Source: a virus (lineage: Duplodnaviria; Caudoviricetes). From it: a DNA stretch of 64,000 nt. The notes below the pieces were generated by a model. It was not told the origin of the DNA. It saw only the letters and a list, made by a program, of their open reading frames with translations, and did no database searches. Below are positions 42,558-49,026 of this stretch, in pieces. The DNA lies in the IMG/VR virus record IMGVR_UViG_3300020048_000002. One strand, 5' to 3'. Positions within the stretch are counted from its first letter, which is position 1. The number at the start of each line of letters is the position of its first letter. The position numbers and the translations under genes are program-made.

Positions 42558-43173
42558 GTTCGCGTTCTCCGATCTTCGCCAACACTTGCTGGAGTGCCTT
42601 CTGCACGTCCGGGCCTGTGGTGGTACCGTGCTCCAACCGGTAACGCAACCGATCTAGAAGGCTTCCTAGCTTCAGGTATGACTCACAACGGAATAGCGCC
42701 TTCGCTCCCACAAGACGGCGCTCACACACCCCAAAGAGTTGTTCCAGTTCAACGCTTACAGCTCTATCCTCGTCGAAGCGGATGGCCTCACGGGGCATCT
42801 CAGGAGTCTGGAGCCCGAAAGCTCGCTCCATGCTGGTCAGGGTACGAGTGAACGGCCCCTCAAGCTGCTCGAACTTCTTGAACAGAGTGATGCAGTCCCA
42901 CCGCTCCTGGCAGACGAAACACCAGACGCCTTCGGGTTTGCCGCCCTCCGAGGGGTAAAAGCGAGTGCTCGGCTTGTTGTCCTTGCCGTGGAACGGACAC
43001 GAGAACTGCTCGGGCTTGTGGCCCCCGTACCGGAGCCGGACACCGTTACGGGCAAGCACATCCTCACACGACACCTGTCTGTGAATCTGCGATACACGAA
43101 TGGCCACCCATTGGCGGAACGCCTCGGATTGACGGGCCTCTTTTTCAGCTTCACCACGAAAGTCTCGGCTCAC
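42526..43173 (-). CDS. stand-alone CHC2 zinc-finger (primase zinc-binding domain) protein
   Basis: CPFHG.DNKPS...WCFVC...D.I; no TOPRIM domain; GTGA overlap. Confidence 0.8.
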   Translation of the reverse strand: MSRDFRGEAEKEARQSEAFRQWVAIRVSQIHRQVSCEDVLARNGVRLRYGGHKPEQFSCPFHGKDNKPSTRFYPSEGGKPEGVWCFVCQERWDCITLFKKFEQLEGPFTRTLTSMERAFGLQTPEMPREAIRFDEDRAVSVELEQLFGVCERRLVGAKALFRCESYLKLGSLLDRLRYRLEHGTTTGPDVQKALQQVLAKIGERERAPSDQAPNP

Positions 43174-44963
43174 TCTTGGTCTAGCCCCATCATGGCATCG
43201 AACCCCTGCCGCTCCTTTTCGAGATCCTCGGCAGGACGCAACCGCTCCTCGATGAGCTTGTGGTACTCCGGGTTCAGTTCGACCCCGAGGTAGTCCCGGC
43301 GGAGATACTTGGCGACCGCGAGAGTCGTACCGGAGCCCGAAAAGGGATCGAGCACGAGATCCCCTTCCTTGGATCCTGCTCGGATACAAATCTCTGGAAG
43401 CTCCTCGGGGAAAGTCGCGAAATGGGCTCCCTTGTAGGGCTTCGGATTGATGTACCAGACGGTGCGTCGGTTGCGAGTCTGGGGTAGCCCGCTCTCCTTG
43501 TACCTGCTGAGCAGGTCAGTAAGGCCGCTGTTCCCACCGTTCCCAGCCCCATAGTGGAATGTTTCTGTGACCTTTGCGCCGGGCATGTGAGTGGTGACAG
43601 CGGGCTCACGGACAGCCTCGTGGTCGTAGAAATACCGCTCATTCTTGGTCAGGAGGAAGATGTACTCGTGGGCCTTGGTGGGCCGATCCGTGACGCTTTC
43701 CGGCATCACGTTTCCCTTCGCCCAGATGATGTCGGAGCGAAGGTACCAACCATCAGCTTGGAGGGCGAGTGCCACTCGGGCCGGAATTTGAGCGTCATCT
43801 TTGGGTTTCAGTACATACGCAGGACGAAAGTACCGATAAAGATGTTCTGGGATTTCAGAAAATCGAACCGTTATCTCCAAACGACGACGGGGATGGACGC
43901 GATGAACCGCAGAATGGGGGCGTACTCCATTTCGTGATGGCGAAACTGTTGGTGGCAATCTCGGCACAAAATCACCCCGTTCGACTCTTCCCACCGATGC
44001 TCTGGATGCGTCGAGTACGGGAGGATATGATGGGCTTCCAGATAGTCCCCCGTGTGACACAGGCGACAATGGTACTGATCGCGTTTCAGCACCTCCTTGC
44101 GCCATTTCACCGCTTCGGGACACATTCTCCCGTTCTGCCCGCCCGACCAAAGATAGTGGTTGTCCCGCTGATTGAAGCTGTACCAACACGTCGGACTGCA
44201 AAAGTGCTTGCCGTGCCGATTCTTCTTGATCTCCGCAACATACTTCTCGAACGGAATACCGCACGTCTTGCACGACACTTGTGGGGTTTGCTTCTTTCGT
44301 GTCGGACTTCCCGATCTCGCACAACTGCGAGAGCAGTACATCCCCTGCCCCATGCGTGTCTGACTTCGATGGATCGTGAAGGGGACCCCGCACTTGAGGC
44401 ACCCCCTCGTAAGGTAGCTCTCGGGACGCACTGTGTTCTTCAAGTGGCATTTCCGACACGTCCGACTCTGCCGGTTCATACTCTCCCCACAAACCGGACA
44501 GGGCTTCCCAGTACTCTTCGTCTGTGAGGTCTTCTCGGATGATGGCATGGTCTGACTGAATCCTACCACTAACGTAGGATGACGCAAGGTTGAGCCACAA
44601 CGTCCCATCGTCCCGAAGAACCCTGCGGACTTCGCGGAAGACCTTGACCATCTCGGCCACATAGGCATCGGGGGTCTGCTCTAGGCCGATCTGAGAGTCA
44701 ATGCGCTTGGCTCCACAATGGCAAACTGTCCTACTAAGACAGTTGGCTTTAGACGAGTGACCGGACTGGGCTCCCTGTGTCTGTTTAGGGCCATCCCACC
44801 TCGTAACCCCGTGAGGACATGACGGATCCCCACCCTCCCACTTGCCCGTACCGTAGTCCCGAAGCCCGAAGTAGGGAGGACTCGTCACGCAGGTTTGCAC
44901 GACCCCATCGGGGACTTCCTTGAGCTTCTCTCGAACATCGCCAAGTAGAACTACGTTTCTCAT
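43170..44963 (-). CDS. N4/N6 DNA methyltransferase with large in-frame insertion
   Basis: VTSPPY, LRDDGTLWLN, ADGWYLRSDIIW.K, HEYIFLL, HFATFP, VLDPFSGSGTT. Confidence 0.9.
   Translation of the reverse strand: MRNVVLLGDVREKLKEVPDGVVQTCVTSPPYFGLRDYGTGKWEGGDPSCPHGVTRWDGPKQTQGAQSGHSSKANCLSRTVCHCGAKRIDSQIGLEQTPDAYVAEMVKVFREVRRVLRDDGTLWLNLASSYVSGRIQSDHAIIREDLTDEEYWEALSGLWGEYEPAESDVSEMPLEEHSASRELPYEGVPQVRGPLHDPSKSDTHGAGDVLLSQLCEIGKSDTKEANPTSVVQDVRYSVREVCCGDQEESARQALLQSDVLVQLQSAGQPLSLVGRAERENVSRSGEMAQGGAETRSVPLSPVSHGGLSGSPSYPPVLDASRASVGRVERGDFVPRLPPTVSPSRNGVRPHSAVHRVHPRRRLEITVRFSEIPEHLYRYFRPAYVLKPKDDAQIPARVALALQADGWYLRSDIIWAKGNVMPESVTDRPTKAHEYIFLLTKNERYFYDHEAVREPAVTTHMPGAKVTETFHYGAGNGGNSGLTDLLSRYKESGLPQTRNRRTVWYINPKPYKGAHFATFPEELPEICIRAGSKEGDLVLDPFSGSGTTLAVAKYLRRDYLGVELNPEYHKLIEERLRPAEDLEKERQGFDAMMGLDQE
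43871..44548 (-). CDS. HNH endonuclease nested out-of-frame in the methyltransferase
   Basis: Multiple CxxC/YCS..C zinc fingers, then RD.Y.C..C....L.AHHI......N...LC..CH. Confidence 0.8.
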   Translation of the reverse strand: MPSSEKTSQTKSTGKPCPVCGESMNRQSRTCRKCHLKNTVRPESYLTRGCLKCGVPFTIHRSQTRMGQGMYCSRSCARSGSPTRKKQTPQVSCKTCGIPFEKYVAEIKKNRHGKHFCSPTCWYSFNQRDNHYLWSGGQNGRMCPEAVKWRKEVLKRDQYHCRLCHTGDYLEAHHILPYSTHPEHRWEESNGVILCRDCHQQFRHHEMEYAPILRFIASIPVVVWR

Positions 44964-44970
44964 TTGATCC

Positions 44971-47900
44971 TCATACGTCAGCCATCGCATCGAGCACGGC
45001 TTGGTGGTCATCGATGCTCATGCCGCTGCCATCGGCCCCCTGATACGAGTCAAGATTGTAGATCCGACGACAGGCAAACTCGACCTTCGCCATGAAAGGC
45101 TCGATGAGCGGGTTGTCACGGTTCTTGAGGTTGCAGAACAGGGTGGTCCCGTTCTTCCGGTGCTCGTCGTTCAGGTAGGTGGTCGTGATCACGTCCGCCG
45201 ATTTTTCGCAGTTGTGCGAAAGGAACCCGTTCGTCGAGTACTCGTGATCTCCCGTCACCTCTAGGTCATAGACCCTGATGGGAGCTTCCTGCACAACACC
45301 TGTGACCTTCAAGGGCAGCACGCAATCCAACCGTTCTTGCAAAGTTGCTCTATCTGGGTCGGTCTCAGGCAACCTGTCAATGACTTCGCGGATAACGCCA
45401 AGGCTCGCGTAAACAGCCCCCATACGAATGCGTCGAGCGGCCTTTTTGGCAGCACGGCTCATCCCTGAGCATCGCTCCACAACGTCGGCGAGAAGCGTCC
45501 CGATAGGCCACGTCGCTCGATTGTCCTTGGTGCTGCCCACCACATTACGGAGGCGTTCGGTCTTGTGTGGCTCTGTGAACCCCACGGTCTCCATGAACGT
45601 CCGAACGCCTAGCCGTGACCCTATGCGCAACACGAAACGTTTGTAGGACTTGCCGTTCAATCGTGTGCTGCCTTCCGACAAGGTCGAGTCAATGCCAAGA
45701 CCGAGGAGCATTAGGTGAACTTCTTGCAAGAGACGTTCGGACTTCGCCGCCATTCCCAAGGCTACGCTGCCTTGATTGTTGATCGACCCGTCCGTGTCAA
45801 ACAACCCTTGCAAGAATGCCTGTACTTGAGACTTGGTTGCCCGTCGAATAACGTCAGGGACGGCAGTCGCCCGACCTTCCCCCACGACGACTCGCTTGAA
45901 CCATCTCGTCAGAGCCTTGTTGCTTTTCAGGAGATCGAACGATCCCGACCGTGACGGGCTCTCCAGCAAGGTCATGTCCTGTCCAAAAGTGCTTCGGAAC
46001 GCCTCCATGAGGCGAGTCCGGACAGCGACCTCTTTCCGATTCCCCGTGAAGCCTACAGTGCTCAGGCCCTCCTTGAAAACACCGTCGCCCATGAAGGCCC
46101 CGATCAAGTAGGCTAGGTCGCTCGTCAAGTGATTTGGCACCACAAGGGGCTGTTGTTTCATGCCTTGTGGTTTCTCGTATGCCTGAAAATCCAGGGCGGG
46201 AAGGTTAGGAGGATCCTTGGCGAAAGGGTAGTCTCCAAAGGTGGTGCCTACGTAGTCGCCAACCTTCAGGTTCTCCGCATAACCCCACCCCCAACCATCC
46301 AAACCTCCAACCCTCAGACGGTGGTTGGAAGTGACTTGAAGAGTGAGCCCCTTATCCGTCTGCACCCGGAGGGTAGGTCGTACCCCATTGTCGAAACGAT
46401 TCAGAACCGTTTTCCACCCCGAACGGCTCCACACCAAGGCACCCATGGGCACCGACTCAATGGGTACCAAGCCCTCGTCCGTAAGCACGAGAGTGCCCTC
46501 TGCTACGCACTCGTTGGCGTAGGAAAGTGCCGACGCCTTGTAGCGACCATCGTTCTTGTTGGCCTCTTCCTTACCTTGACGGTTGATCTGAAACAACATG
46601 AGGACGGGGATCTTCTCGCCGTGGTTGAAGTGGAGGCAGAACTTCTTGGTGTCGCGAATGATGGAGTTCAGCTCCACCACGTAGTCCTTCGACTTCTTAG
46701 CCTTCCGGGCTTCCATGAGCTGCCCGTGGTCGATGACGATGAGCCCGACCTCCATCTGCTTGTGGGTCAACTCCGCATCGAGGCGAATATCGTCGATGGT
46801 CATGTCGCGATCGGGGGACCGAATCTCGAACTGACAATACTCGGGGTTGTTGCAGAAGTCGTCGATGACCTTCTGGTAAAAGGCTTCCTCCTCGGGGGTG
46901 AGTTCCCCGTCACGGACTCTCCGGTAATCGAGGGGGCGATAACCCTGAGCCCGCCACTTTGCATGACTCGAATGAATGACGTAGACTTGCAGCCGTAGCT
47001 GTTCGTACGGCATTTCGAGCGAGTAGTAGAGGATGTTCGACTTGTAACGGGTGGCGAGGTTGTAGCACCAGTTGAGGGCGAACGATGTGTTATGCGTTAC
47101 GATGTCGTTCGCGACGAACGTGTGATGCTCTGGCACGGATAGGTCGTACGTCATCTCCCGTCCACGAGAGACGACGGAAGTAACTTGCTCCCAGGTGAGA
47201 TCGCCGTCTAGTACACGAGCCACGTCGGGGTATTGCCGGAAAAGCGTCGCAGTATCCGCCCGCATGGTGGACCGTCCCTTGACTTGGCTGGCATACCTAA
47301 ATTTACCGTGGACGAAAGGCACCTTAGCCCCATCGGGCACGAAGTCTGATGGGATGGACATGTCGTCCCCCGGCAACAACCGAGCACGAACTTCCGCGAA
47401 GTCGGCCTCTTTCCCGACCACCACGACTCGATGGGCAAACACTCGCTTGGACTCGCGCGTCACCACACGAACCGTGTGGAACGTGTAAGGCTCCCCCCTG
47501 TACGTGGTGTTCACCTGAGTGACCGTGGACTGAATGCCGAGACGTAGCAAGAGGGCCTGCACGTCAAGGCACAATCCACGGCTAACGGAGGCATACGAGA
47601 TGTCGTTTCGATGGCAATCGCTTTCACGATCATCTCGTTCATGGTCCCCGTGATGACATGAACCATCCGTCGACCACAAGGCCCCGATAAGCAAAGCGAC
47701 TTGGTCCTCGGGAAGGGAGAAGAAGTCGTCAGGGACGCGCTTATCGTAAGACCCCTTGCCATATAGGCCGAGCAAATCGAGAAGCCCTCTGACTGGAGAT
47801 TCCATAGGGCTGTTACCGTCGCCCGCGCTGTTGCTGACCCGCACGCTAGGGGCACGATTGGGTTGGAAAACCTCGCGAAACGTGGGGGTCACGTAGTCGG

Positions 47901-49026
47901 CGGCACCCTTTACCAAACCCATGTCGATCAGGCACGCCATGAAGTCTCGCCGGATTTCCTCGTTAGAGGCAGTCAAGGTGATGTCTTTCGTGAGGGACCC
48001 GTCCCCGATGAGGTACCCCACCACCTTGACCTCTGCGTCCGTAAACAAACGCTGACCCTCGAAAGACATTTGCTTTGGGGTCGCTACCCAATCCCCTTCC
48101 CGAAGAGTGGATAGTTCCTTCCAACCTGCCGGGGTAAAAAACTTGTGGTTGTCCGTCGCCCCAATGGTTCGTCCCGACGACAAGGTCAGGTCGAACACTT
48201 CGCGCACCCCGTTCTGAACGAGATGTGAGGCTGGGGTGCGAATCAGCCGGAAGGTTTCGCCCTCACGGTCGAGAGCGGTGACAACGGGCACGTCACCCGT
48301 CTCATACATCTCTTGCAAGGTGCGACGCCGGTTCGTGCGGTGGTCATACACCGTCACGTCTCCCGCGAGACACTTGAGTTCCCCCGGAAATGCAGCGTGA
48401 ACCCACAACTCGCCCTTCTTGATACCGTGGCTCACCGAATCGATGTTGTTGAGTCCGGTGAACTTTCCCCACACCTTGTCTTTGTTGACCTTGGCGTCGA
48501 GATAAGAGTCCCACATGGCTTGCCCGTCGAGCCGGATGTCTCCCGCCGTCCGAGCATTGAAGTCCGATAGGACGAGATCATGGGCCTTTTGCGTGAAGTA
48601 AATGAGCCCCTCTCGAACTCCCTGCTTCCGAATCTTCTCCCGACCCTCCTGGATGATGAGCCCCTTGTTGATAATCTCATGGGCTTCCTTCAGAAGGGTC
48701 GTTGCCTTGATTCGATTCTGCTCCTCTAGGAGAGTCGTAATCAGGTGAGCGAAGTTGGTACGAACGTACCAAGGGGCTGCTGCAATGTCCTTCAGCCGTT
48801 CGTTGGCCTCTAGGTCGCCCGTCTTGTCGAAGTAGTCGATGACGGTCTGAGCCGAAGGCATTTCCAGTCGTTGCTGGAAGTACGAAGCAAGGAAATCGTA
48901 AACCTTGGCATCGTCCGGGCGGTTCCATTCGATGCGCGCCTGCGTCACCTTCTGGAAATTTTGGACAAGCTGCTCCGGGGTGATCTGCCCGTCGAAGTCA
49001 ATGCAGGATCGGAGTAGGCGCTTCAT
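44971..49026 (-). CDS. dnaB: replicative DNA helicase (DnaB-like) with two inteins
   Basis: GIKKGEL...PGELK|TS, YSLEM, LIVIDH, QINR, E..AD, KNRD. Confidence 0.88.
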   Translation of the reverse strand: MKRLLRSCIDFDGQITPEQLVQNFQKVTQARIEWNRPDDAKVYDFLASYFQQRLEMPSAQTVIDYFDKTGDLEANERLKDIAAAPWYVRTNFAHLITTLLEEQNRIKATTLLKEAHEIINKGLIIQEGREKIRKQGVREGLIYFTQKAHDLVLSDFNARTAGDIRLDGQAMWDSYLDAKVNKDKVWGKFTGLNNIDSVSHGIKKGELWVHAAFPGELKCLAGDVTVYDHRTNRRRTLQEMYETGDVPVVTALDREGETFRLIRTPASHLVQNGVREVFDLTLSSGRTIGATDNHKFFTPAGWKELSTLREGDWVATPKQMSFEGQRLFTDAEVKVVGYLIGDGSLTKDITLTASNEEIRRDFMACLIDMGLVKGAADYVTPTFREVFQPNRAPSVRVSNSAGDGNSPMESPVRGLLDLLGLYGKGSYDKRVPDDFFSLPEDQVALLIGALWSTDGSCHHGDHERDDRESDCHRNDISYASVSRGLCLDVQALLLRLGIQSTVTQVNTTYRGEPYTFHTVRVVTRESKRVFAHRVVVVGKEADFAEVRARLLPGDDMSIPSDFVPDGAKVPFVHGKFRYASQVKGRSTMRADTATLFRQYPDVARVLDGDLTWEQVTSVVSRGREMTYDLSVPEHHTFVANDIVTHNTSFALNWCYNLATRYKSNILYYSLEMPYEQLRLQVYVIHSSHAKWRAQGYRPLDYRRVRDGELTPEEEAFYQKVIDDFCNNPEYCQFEIRSPDRDMTIDDIRLDAELTHKQMEVGLIVIDHGQLMEARKAKKSKDYVVELNSIIRDTKKFCLHFNHGEKIPVLMLFQINRQGKEEANKNDGRYKASALSYANECVAEGTLVLTDEGLVPIESVPMGALVWSRSGWKTVLNRFDNGVRPTLRVQTDKGLTLQVTSNHRLRVGGLDGWGWGYAENLKVGDYVGTTFGDYPFAKDPPNLPALDFQAYEKPQGMKQQPLVVPNHLTSDLAYLIGAFMGDGVFKEGLSTVGFTGNRKEVAVRTRLMEAFRSTFGQDMTLLESPSRSGSFDLLKSNKALTRWFKRVVVGEGRATAVPDVIRRATKSQVQAFLQGLFDTDGSINNQGSVALGMAAKSERLLQEVHLMLLGLGIDSTLSEGSTRLNGKSYKRFVLRIGSRLGVRTFMETVGFTEPHKTERLRNVVGSTKDNRATWPIGTLLADVVERCSGMSRAAKKAARRIRMGAVYASLGVIREVIDRLPETDPDRATLQERLDCVLPLKVTGVVQEAPIRVYDLEVTGDHEYSTNGFLSHNCEKSADVITTTYLNDEHRKNGTTLFCNLKNRDNPLIEPFMAKVEFACRRIYNLDSYQGADGSGMSIDDHQAVLDAMADV
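45211..46509 (-). mobile_element. intein 2 in DnaB (433 aa)
   Basis: YANE|CVAEG...QGLFDTDG...LSHN|CEKSAD. Confidence 0.92.
47089..48372 (-). mobile_element. intein 1 in DnaB Walker A (428 aa)
   Basis: GELK|CLAGD...GALWSTDG...VTHN|TSFA. Confidence 0.92.

Follow-up and report, generated by a model that had tools for sequence, protein, structure and literature searches.

An HNH endonuclease gene out of frame within a phage DNA methyltransferase gene that stays open

Introduction

How can a selfish nuclease gene lie inside a conserved gene that keeps its own reading frame open from end to end? Homing endonuclease genes are usually thought to persist inside genes in only two ways, either with the help of a splicing element (intron or intein) or by breaking the gene in two. 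A 64,000-nucleotide stretch of DNA from an uncultured phage (Caudoviricetes, IMG/VR record IMGVR_UViG_3300020048_000002; the whole stretch is called the window below) raises this question. Its DNA methyltransferase gene (43170..44963, minus strand) contains a complete HNH endonuclease gene on the same strand in a different frame, and the methyltransferase frame has no stop across it. A previous interpretation of the letters, referred to here as the sequence-only reading, had proposed a homing element that would neither splice nor break its host gene. We analysed the anatomy of this locus, its relatives, the selection acting on both frames and the explanations that compete for it.

Results

A complete HNH gene in the +1 frame of an open methyltransferase gene

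The methyltransferase open reading frame (ORF) spans 43170-45011 on the minus strand (613 aa) and is open upstream to 45011; translation probably begins at the ATG at 44963 (MRNVVLLGDV...), the equivalent of the start in the relatives P0005 and P0013. The product is a beta-class N4/N6 enzyme with 'SPPY' as motif IV and 'DPFSGSGTT' as motif I, and Pfam matched it to N6_N4_Mtase (PF01555, E 2e-48) in two stretches with a long gap between them. From LNLASSY (aa 140-146, from 44594) to LKPKD (aa 401, from 43811) about 255 codons follow one another without a stop, as the sequence-only reading had reported for the interval between WLNL and LKPKD. Over 43815-44585 we counted no stops in the methyltransferase frame, one in the +1 frame, which is the HNH gene's own, and eight in the third frame. 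All catalytic and S-adenosylmethionine (SAM)-binding motifs are kept in the methyltransferase halves on either side. In an AlphaFold2 model of the full protein the core had a predicted local distance difference test score (pLDDT) above 90, and its fold matched the solved beta-class N6/N4 enzymes M.BceJIV, M.MboIIA, CcrM and M.RsrI.

The gene in the +1 frame (43871..44548, minus strand) runs from an ATG at 44548 to a TAA at 43871-43873 and encodes 225 aa, so the zinc-finger and HNH protein that had been read from the sequence proved to be complete. Three zinc ribbons of the CxxC...C..C type precede a C-terminal HNH core (HH173-174, N190, H199), with Pfam matches to HNH_2 (PF13391, E 1.4e-6) and PF01844. 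Homologues were found in about 84 protein clusters, and the catalytic and cysteine columns were invariant across those aligned. The AlphaFold2 model reached a pLDDT of 84, with an HNH core resembling those of McrA, Cap5 and the GVE2 HNH protein. The TAA falls within the methyltransferase codons ATA-ACG (Ile-Thr), and the window holds a single copy of the gene. A +1 frameshift fusing the N-terminal half of the methyltransferase to the HNH protein was also considered and set aside, since relatives do not consistently keep the HNH frame open ahead of its ATG.

Selection maintains the HNH protein and an open host frame

The expected number of stops in the methyltransferase (host) frame was obtained by shuffling synonymous codons within the HNH ORF, which preserves both its protein and its codon usage. 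No host-frame stop was present in the window, where 7.2 were expected (P about 2-3e-4), nor in L001 (10.8 expected, P <2.5e-4); both loci were ascertained through their open frame, L001 by way of a long methyltransferase ORF. To guard against this bias, relatives were gathered through the HNH protein and not through the methyltransferase ORF. Two loci obtained in this way, which were therefore not pre-selected for an open host frame, also lacked host-frame stops: L163 (6.5 expected, P 3e-4) and L003 (4.2 expected, P 7e-3). The other alternative frame served as a control and behaved as expected in every locus, with 5 stops observed versus 4.7 expected in the window. That is, the openness of the host frame exceeds chance.

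The HNH gene itself is maintained as a protein under purifying selection. Differences between loci fell mainly on the third HNH codon position (0.57, versus 0.33 at the first and 0.27 at the second). We then took the ratio of nonsynonymous to synonymous change (dN/dS) in both frames, a comparison that the sequence-only reading had suggested. In the HNH frame it was about 0.1 (0.09-0.15, Nei-Gojobori, with dS saturated), and the apparent host-frame value over the HNH core was 1.4-1.8. Relatives in which the host frame is full of stops and untranslatable gave host-frame values of 1.1-1.7. Since the read-through peptide thus equals its untranslated equivalent, it is constrained only to lack stops. 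A weak amino-acid constraint on this peptide was rejected on the same comparison.

Empty alleles define the segment

The methyltransferases closest to that of the window (P0005, P0013 and P0004, 64-67% aa identity) have no HNH insert, whereas those that bear one are only 39-47% identical to it overall. P0013 lies on contig L244 in the same gene order as in the window (DnaB, methyltransferase, DnaG-like gene), and thereby provided the insert-free homologue for a direct alignment. At the DNA level (blastn/tblastx) L244 and the window are 72-83% identical, and 74-83% in the flanks of the segment. Homology runs to 44585 and picks up again at 43811, in agreement with the boundaries 43815-44585 drawn from the sequence alone. 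These sharp breakpoints identify the segment as a block that was acquired or lost in place of a variable loop. It amounts to a replacement and not a pure insertion, as 773 nt in the window (43812..44584, minus strand) stand against a 137-nt loop in L244, and it is bordered by the highly conserved motifs LWLNL and KPKD..IP..AL..DGW.

The segment, called the cassette in the following, consists of the N-terminal part of a small subdomain, the HNH gene and the C-terminal part of the subdomain. The N-part (44475..44584, minus strand; aa 143-179, beginning ASSYVSGRIQSDHAIIREDLTDEEYWEALSGLW) and the C-part (43812..43874, minus strand; aa 380-400, ending in ITVRFSEIPEHLYRYFRPAYV directly before LKPKDD) are read in the methyltransferase frame. 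Together they supply about 35 codons on the N-side and about 22 on the C-side that are conserved in this frame and confidently folded. Reading eight loci frame by frame, we found the N-side motif (..SSY.S..IES..Y.IR.DLT.EE..) conserved in all of them, and the C-side motif 'IP..L..(Y/F)F.P' in most (it is degenerate in L001). The HNH stop overlaps the first codons of the latter motif. A profile search with the N-side motif matched 165 proteins among 1.84 billion representatives.

One methyltransferase, P0233 (474 aa, on the phage-like contig L248), carries the two motifs directly next to each other with no HNH gene. In a tblastn comparison its residues 2-172 aligned to 44957-44475 of the window and residues 177-345 to 43874-43371, and the gap between the two alignments gives a net HNH insertion of 43875..44474 (minus strand), that is 600 nt or 200 codons. 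The sequence-only extent therefore holds against L244, while the HNH insertion proper is narrower. The 678-nt HNH ORF reaches 74 nt further upstream into the subdomain helix. This overlap (44475..44548, minus strand) is genuine dual coding, in which the poorly conserved HNH N-terminus and first zinc knuckle lie over the helix of the methyltransferase subdomain.

Structure prediction followed the same boundaries. The pLDDT was 90-92 over aa 140-170, 74 over aa 171-180 and 91-93 in the C-part, and dropped below 50 over most of aa 191-374, so that the net insertion, read in the methyltransferase frame, is predicted to form a disordered, stop-free linker. The description of the whole segment as low in information, made in the sequence-only reading, thus fits this unconstrained linker but not the first ~35 and last ~22 codons. 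The deviating flanks that it had pointed out (ASSY for GDSY; KDDAQIPAR for KDLIGIPWR) are real, and all cassette-bearing loci examined carry such variants: GSSY, GSSF, ASCY or GSSH on one side and KPKDD, or KQRDD, KQKDD or KPKND, on the other.

Split, decayed and free-standing relatives

Four loci that were also found through the HNH protein (L164, L167, L168 and L005) have the same HNH family in the same place, with the methyltransferase halves in different frames. They are laid out as three overlapping ORFs with conserved peptides at the broken ends. In L167, L168 and L005 the N-side frame ends soon after the subdomain helix, and in L164 it ends 47 codons later, inside the HNH gene. The HNH ATG of L167 overlaps the end of the N fragment. 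A conserved ATG (RCGM(L/F)S) that overlaps the HNH stop restarts the C fragment in L164, L167 and L168; in L005 an in-frame ATG lies in the corresponding stretch. Host-frame stops were about as frequent as expected in L167 (28 versus 25.6) and L168 (24 versus 26.0). L164 had 3 stops versus 12 expected together with a 3' frame change, and thus looks like a recently broken read-through form. Stops in the methyltransferase frame of homologues had been named as a sign of simple gene disruption; L163, L003 and L001 have none, and in view of their layout we take the four broken loci for an organised state in its own right, one that does not refute read-through. Many of the short proteins among the N-side motif matches end a few residues past the motif, which suggests that the split form is common.

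Further states were found in other relatives. In P0252 and P0236 most of the HNH gene is deleted and the host frame is still open, making them decayed read-through forms. A free-standing copy of the HNH family occurs in an AT-rich phage (L004). In L166:492-1347 (protein P0148; 7 contigs, the longest of 146,794 bp) a short ORF with the subdomain N-motif (IESDEYVIRNGLTDEERAYVY) precedes an HNH gene that adjoins a dnaE-like gene; there are no methyltransferase halves, and the arrangement looks like a relocated or decaying cassette. Taken together, empty, read-through, split, free and decayed forms look like stages in the life cycle of a homing element.

A cultured-phage copy of the cassette was not found: a tblastn search of 50,697 phage records with the full protein yielded no match of at least 80% coverage, and the HNH protein found distant HNHs only in these records. 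In the genome contigs collection, no close relative of the HNH protein was found either (best 32%).

Other inserts and neighbouring genes

The same methyltransferase loop holds other inserts. In P0029 (L002:318-2024) a distantly related HNH gene lies on the opposite strand (L002:808-1431, minus strand) and the host frame is open (0 stops versus 4.1 expected, P 0.0026; it was the long ORF that had led to this locus). A second, different insert of ~150-200 codons occupies the same subdomain loop in P0248, P0260, P0280, P0288, P0303, P0327, P0330, P0337 and P0342. Its 'shadow' in the methyltransferase frame is conserved (..LLRG.., ..EGQ(V/I)S..LLELQL..), and a further gene may be hidden there in a different frame.

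Elsewhere in the window methyltransferase, a stretch of ~50 residues rich in Cys and His (44694-44850, minus strand; GKWEGGDPSCPHG...CHCGAKRID) is present in most homologues and missing from the L244 allele, P0013. Another insert-free relative, P0004 (Logan contig SRR23086390), adjoins an HNH gene, a second PF01555 methyltransferase of 555 aa and a GIY-YIG gene, so that methyltransferases and homing-type nucleases are clustered there.

Upstream of the methyltransferase, the window encodes a DnaB-type helicase (44971-49026, minus strand, 1351 aa) with two inteins; downstream lies a DnaG-like zinc-ribbon gene. The C-terminal DnaB intein (45202-46510, ~1.3 kb) is missing from the syntenic L244 (L244:1-966). 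As both this intein and the HNH cassette are present in the window and absent from L244, the two phages differ at two selfish elements within 3 kb.

Discussion

A homing-type gene that is probably read through

We consider it likely that a homing-type HNH gene is lodged in a surface loop of the small methyltransferase subdomain and is read through in the host frame. Ribosomes translating the methyltransferase would pass straight through the +1-frame HNH gene and make one continuous chain. In this chain the 200 codons contributed by the HNH gene would form a disordered linker that loops out from between the two subdomain halves. Selection on codon choice in the HNH gene would keep the host frame free of stops and leave the amino acids of the linker otherwise free. 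The HNH protein would be made separately and at a low level, most likely by ribosomes that initiate internally, at the ATG in position 44548. The cassette, with its subdomain halves and altered flanks (ASSY, KPKDD), may have been acquired through recombination with another allele that already bore it. A plausible route is homing promoted by the endonuclease, in which the flanks would have been co-converted, with LWLNL and KPKD..IP..AL..DGW as the putative homology arms. Indirect support for homing comes from the empty syntenic allele, the patchy distribution and the existence of free-standing and decayed copies. Such an element would neither splice nor break its host gene, and both enzymes would be active, the HNH protein on a target of its own.

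Several observations weigh against this reading. A disordered loop of 200 residues beside the catalytic core could easily be disabling, and in the window methyltransferase Ser replaces the nearly invariant Asp of 'GDSY'. Signals for separate HNH expression are poor, as the Shine-Dalgarno-like AGGA 12-13 nt upstream of the HNH ATG is weak and a scan of the methyltransferase gene for promoters and terminators found no internal promoter-like site or terminator. The window and L001 owe their ascertainment to the open frame, as noted above. In addition, the forks of a quick HNH tree are mostly unsupported, so that neither a single versus multiple origin of the read-through state nor the donor can be inferred from it.

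Four other explanations have to be considered. The HNH ORF might be carried by a self-splicing intron of group I, group II or a new type, with the open host frame being incidental or serving unspliced transcripts. HNH genes are indeed common in phage group I introns, and the methyltransferase halves of the four split relatives lie in different frames, as exons could. However, an Rfam scan over 43000-45200 at E <= 10 found no intron, only two chance-level matches (CRISPR repeat, RRE), and the net insertion of 600 nt falls entirely within the 678-nt HNH ORF. Because conserved methyltransferase-frame peptides abut this ORF on both sides, there is no room for a ribozyme. Depletion of host-frame stops would also be pointless in a segment that is removed, and the out-of-frame relatives have start/stop overlaps like those of coupled genes, at the restart ATG and HNH stop and, in L167, at the N-fragment stop and HNH start. 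An intron is therefore very unlikely. Least probable of all is protein splicing, with the in-frame peptide acting as an unusual intein. The insertion is in frame in a conserved gene and the neighbouring DnaB has two inteins, but a Pfam search of the methyltransferase ORF for an intein or Hint domain found N6_N4_Mtase only, and no intein block was present. The boundaries have no Cys/Ser ... His-Asn signature, so the earlier observation that intein ends are missing was borne out, and the peptide is predicted to be disordered and evolves without constraint.

Alternatively, the frame could be kept open for translation and not for the enzyme. The methyltransferase would then be inactive or dispensable, and a premature stop would be harmful only by uncoupling translation, with polar effects on the coupled replication genes downstream. 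This would agree with the DnaG-like gene starting at the methyltransferase stop (in L244 the methyltransferase stop likewise overlaps the start of the next gene), with the overlaps in the split forms (HNH start and N-fragment end in L167, restart ATG and HNH stop), by which ribosomes would be held on the message, with a linker free of amino-acid constraint and with the replaced Asp of GDSY. The catalytic and SAM-binding motifs are nevertheless kept, and the halves remain conserved even between cassette-bearing lineages that have diverged widely. Conservation as protein extends to the subdomain halves on either side of the HNH gene, and forms with a decayed HNH gene retain a full-length methyltransferase. 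We regard this explanation as unlikely, though less so than the others. The two genes could also cooperate, either as a compact restriction-modification or addiction-like module or with the nuclease domesticated. The HNH core does resemble McrA-type restriction nucleases, after which the Joint Genome Institute (JGI) also names homologues, and HNH genes recur in or beside methyltransferases of several classes. Against a cooperative pair, close methyltransferase relatives have no HNH gene, and the HNH family occurs free-standing (L004), beside a dnaE-like gene with no methyltransferase (L166) and as decayed copies. Since such a patchy distribution with free and decayed copies is typical of a mobile homing gene, we give the cooperative pair very little weight.

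Comparison with known systems

A precedent, which the sequence-only reading had named correctly, is the ShiLan domain, an HNH insertion that hides out of frame in the DNA methylases of mycobacteriophages (Gosselin et al. 2023, PMC9957025; Arsenault, Gosselin & Gogarten 2025, PMC11855218); the abstract of the 2025 paper mentions such insertions in other phages and in prokaryotes as well. We examined this family directly, with PopTart gp63 as an insert-free member (a DPPY-type PF01555 methylase) and Filuzino gp74 as one with a ShiLan-type out-of-frame HNH after GTALKP. As in ShiLan, a PF01555 methylase gene whose own frame is stop-free contains a complete HNH gene, read from the same strand in another frame, no intein or intron signature is present, and the in-frame peptide is a predicted unstructured loop. 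The patchy distribution with insert-free close relatives and the repeated 'CxxCG...(Y/F)CSRxC' zinc-ribbon modules of the HNH proteins are also shared. The two differ, however, in methylase subfamily (SPPY and PopTart gp60-like in the window, DPPY and PopTart gp63-like in ShiLan), in site (the loop between LNLGDSY and LKPKD versus inside GTALKP|SFEPVVVARKP) and in the frame offset of the HNH gene (+1 versus +2). The HNH core is C-terminal in the window and central in ShiLan, and the two cores gave no convincing alignment; in a BLASTP comparison of the HNH proteins the zinc-ribbon repeats aligned and nothing else, and the methylases have generic motifs only in common. ShiLan is known from temperate mycobacteriophages and the window from an uncultured phage, and selection for the open frame has been quantified here for the window family. 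On these sequence comparisons, the window element is an independent lineage of the ShiLan-type design, analogous and not homologous to ShiLan.

The same design occurs at unrelated sites and with unrelated HNH lineages in three further loci. In Escherichia phage BUCT618 (L243; OM735461.1 36396-38258) a DPPY-type methyltransferase annotated as one 620-aa protein holds an out-of-frame HNH ORF of 201 aa (L243:2462-3067), at a site unlike that of ShiLan; a close relative of this element is found in L182:2570-4144. The BUCT618-type element had no match at all in 5,426 complete Escherichia coli genomes. L013:1904-3691 encodes a C5-cytosine methyltransferase (PF00145, E 4e-76) whose frame stays open across an HNH gene that lies out of frame before the last methyltransferase motif. 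The non-actinophage setting of the window element, stressed in the sequence-only reading, is thus true but not unique. Openness of the host frame was weakly significant in BUCT618 and L182 (P 0.02 and 0.10), and L013 had 0 stops versus 2.4 expected (P 0.036). In these loci the host frame is the +1 frame of the HNH gene, where stops are expected to be few, and an open frame therefore carries little statistical weight (P 0.02-0.1), whereas in the window family the host frame is the -1 frame, giving P values down to about 3e-4 or lower.

A gene in pieces is known from Aeromonas phage Aeh1, in the arrangement nrdA-a / mobE / nrdA-b (Crona et al. 2011, PMC3045599). There too, a mobile endonuclease gene of the HNH family inside an enzyme gene is tolerated without RNA or protein splicing, and the sister loci L164, L167, L168 and L005 have exactly this three-ORF layout. 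The host gene of the window, in contrast, is unsplit, a single open ORF that would be read through. Since the flanking peptides are contiguous in the HNH-free P0233, they look like a pre-existing subdomain and not like tails created by the insertion.

Other phage homing endonucleases reside in introns and inteins, such as I-HmuI, those of the T4 td and nrdB introns and, beside the methyltransferase gene, the inteins of DnaB. They resemble the window element in being selfish nuclease genes at a conserved site of a conserved gene whose cost to that gene is neutralised. The window element differs in having neither ribozyme nor Hint domain, with frame-compatible coding taking the place of excision.

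Implications

It is conceivable, although we hold this tentatively, that the read-through and three-ORF split forms are interconvertible states of one mobile cassette. Its subdomain halves and altered flanks would act as a portable 'landing pad' that replaces the loop of the recipient by co-conversion. The HNH gene could thereby invade methyltransferases that have no subdomain, with the host enzyme functional as one chain or as two, and L164 would be an intermediate caught between the states.

The locus adds a statistically clean, non-actinophage lineage to a recently described third route by which an endonuclease gene may persist inside a gene, through frame-compatible coding and read-through. 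What it contributes beyond the earlier examples is strong statistics, exact boundaries and the co-existence of several states. Because gene callers annotate only the long methyltransferase ORF, hidden nucleases of this kind are invisible in protein databases and phage annotations. With one HNH family at one site in empty (with and without the subdomain), read-through, split and decayed states, it becomes directly testable how such an element passes through its evolutionary cycle and what a disordered loop of 200 residues costs an enzyme.

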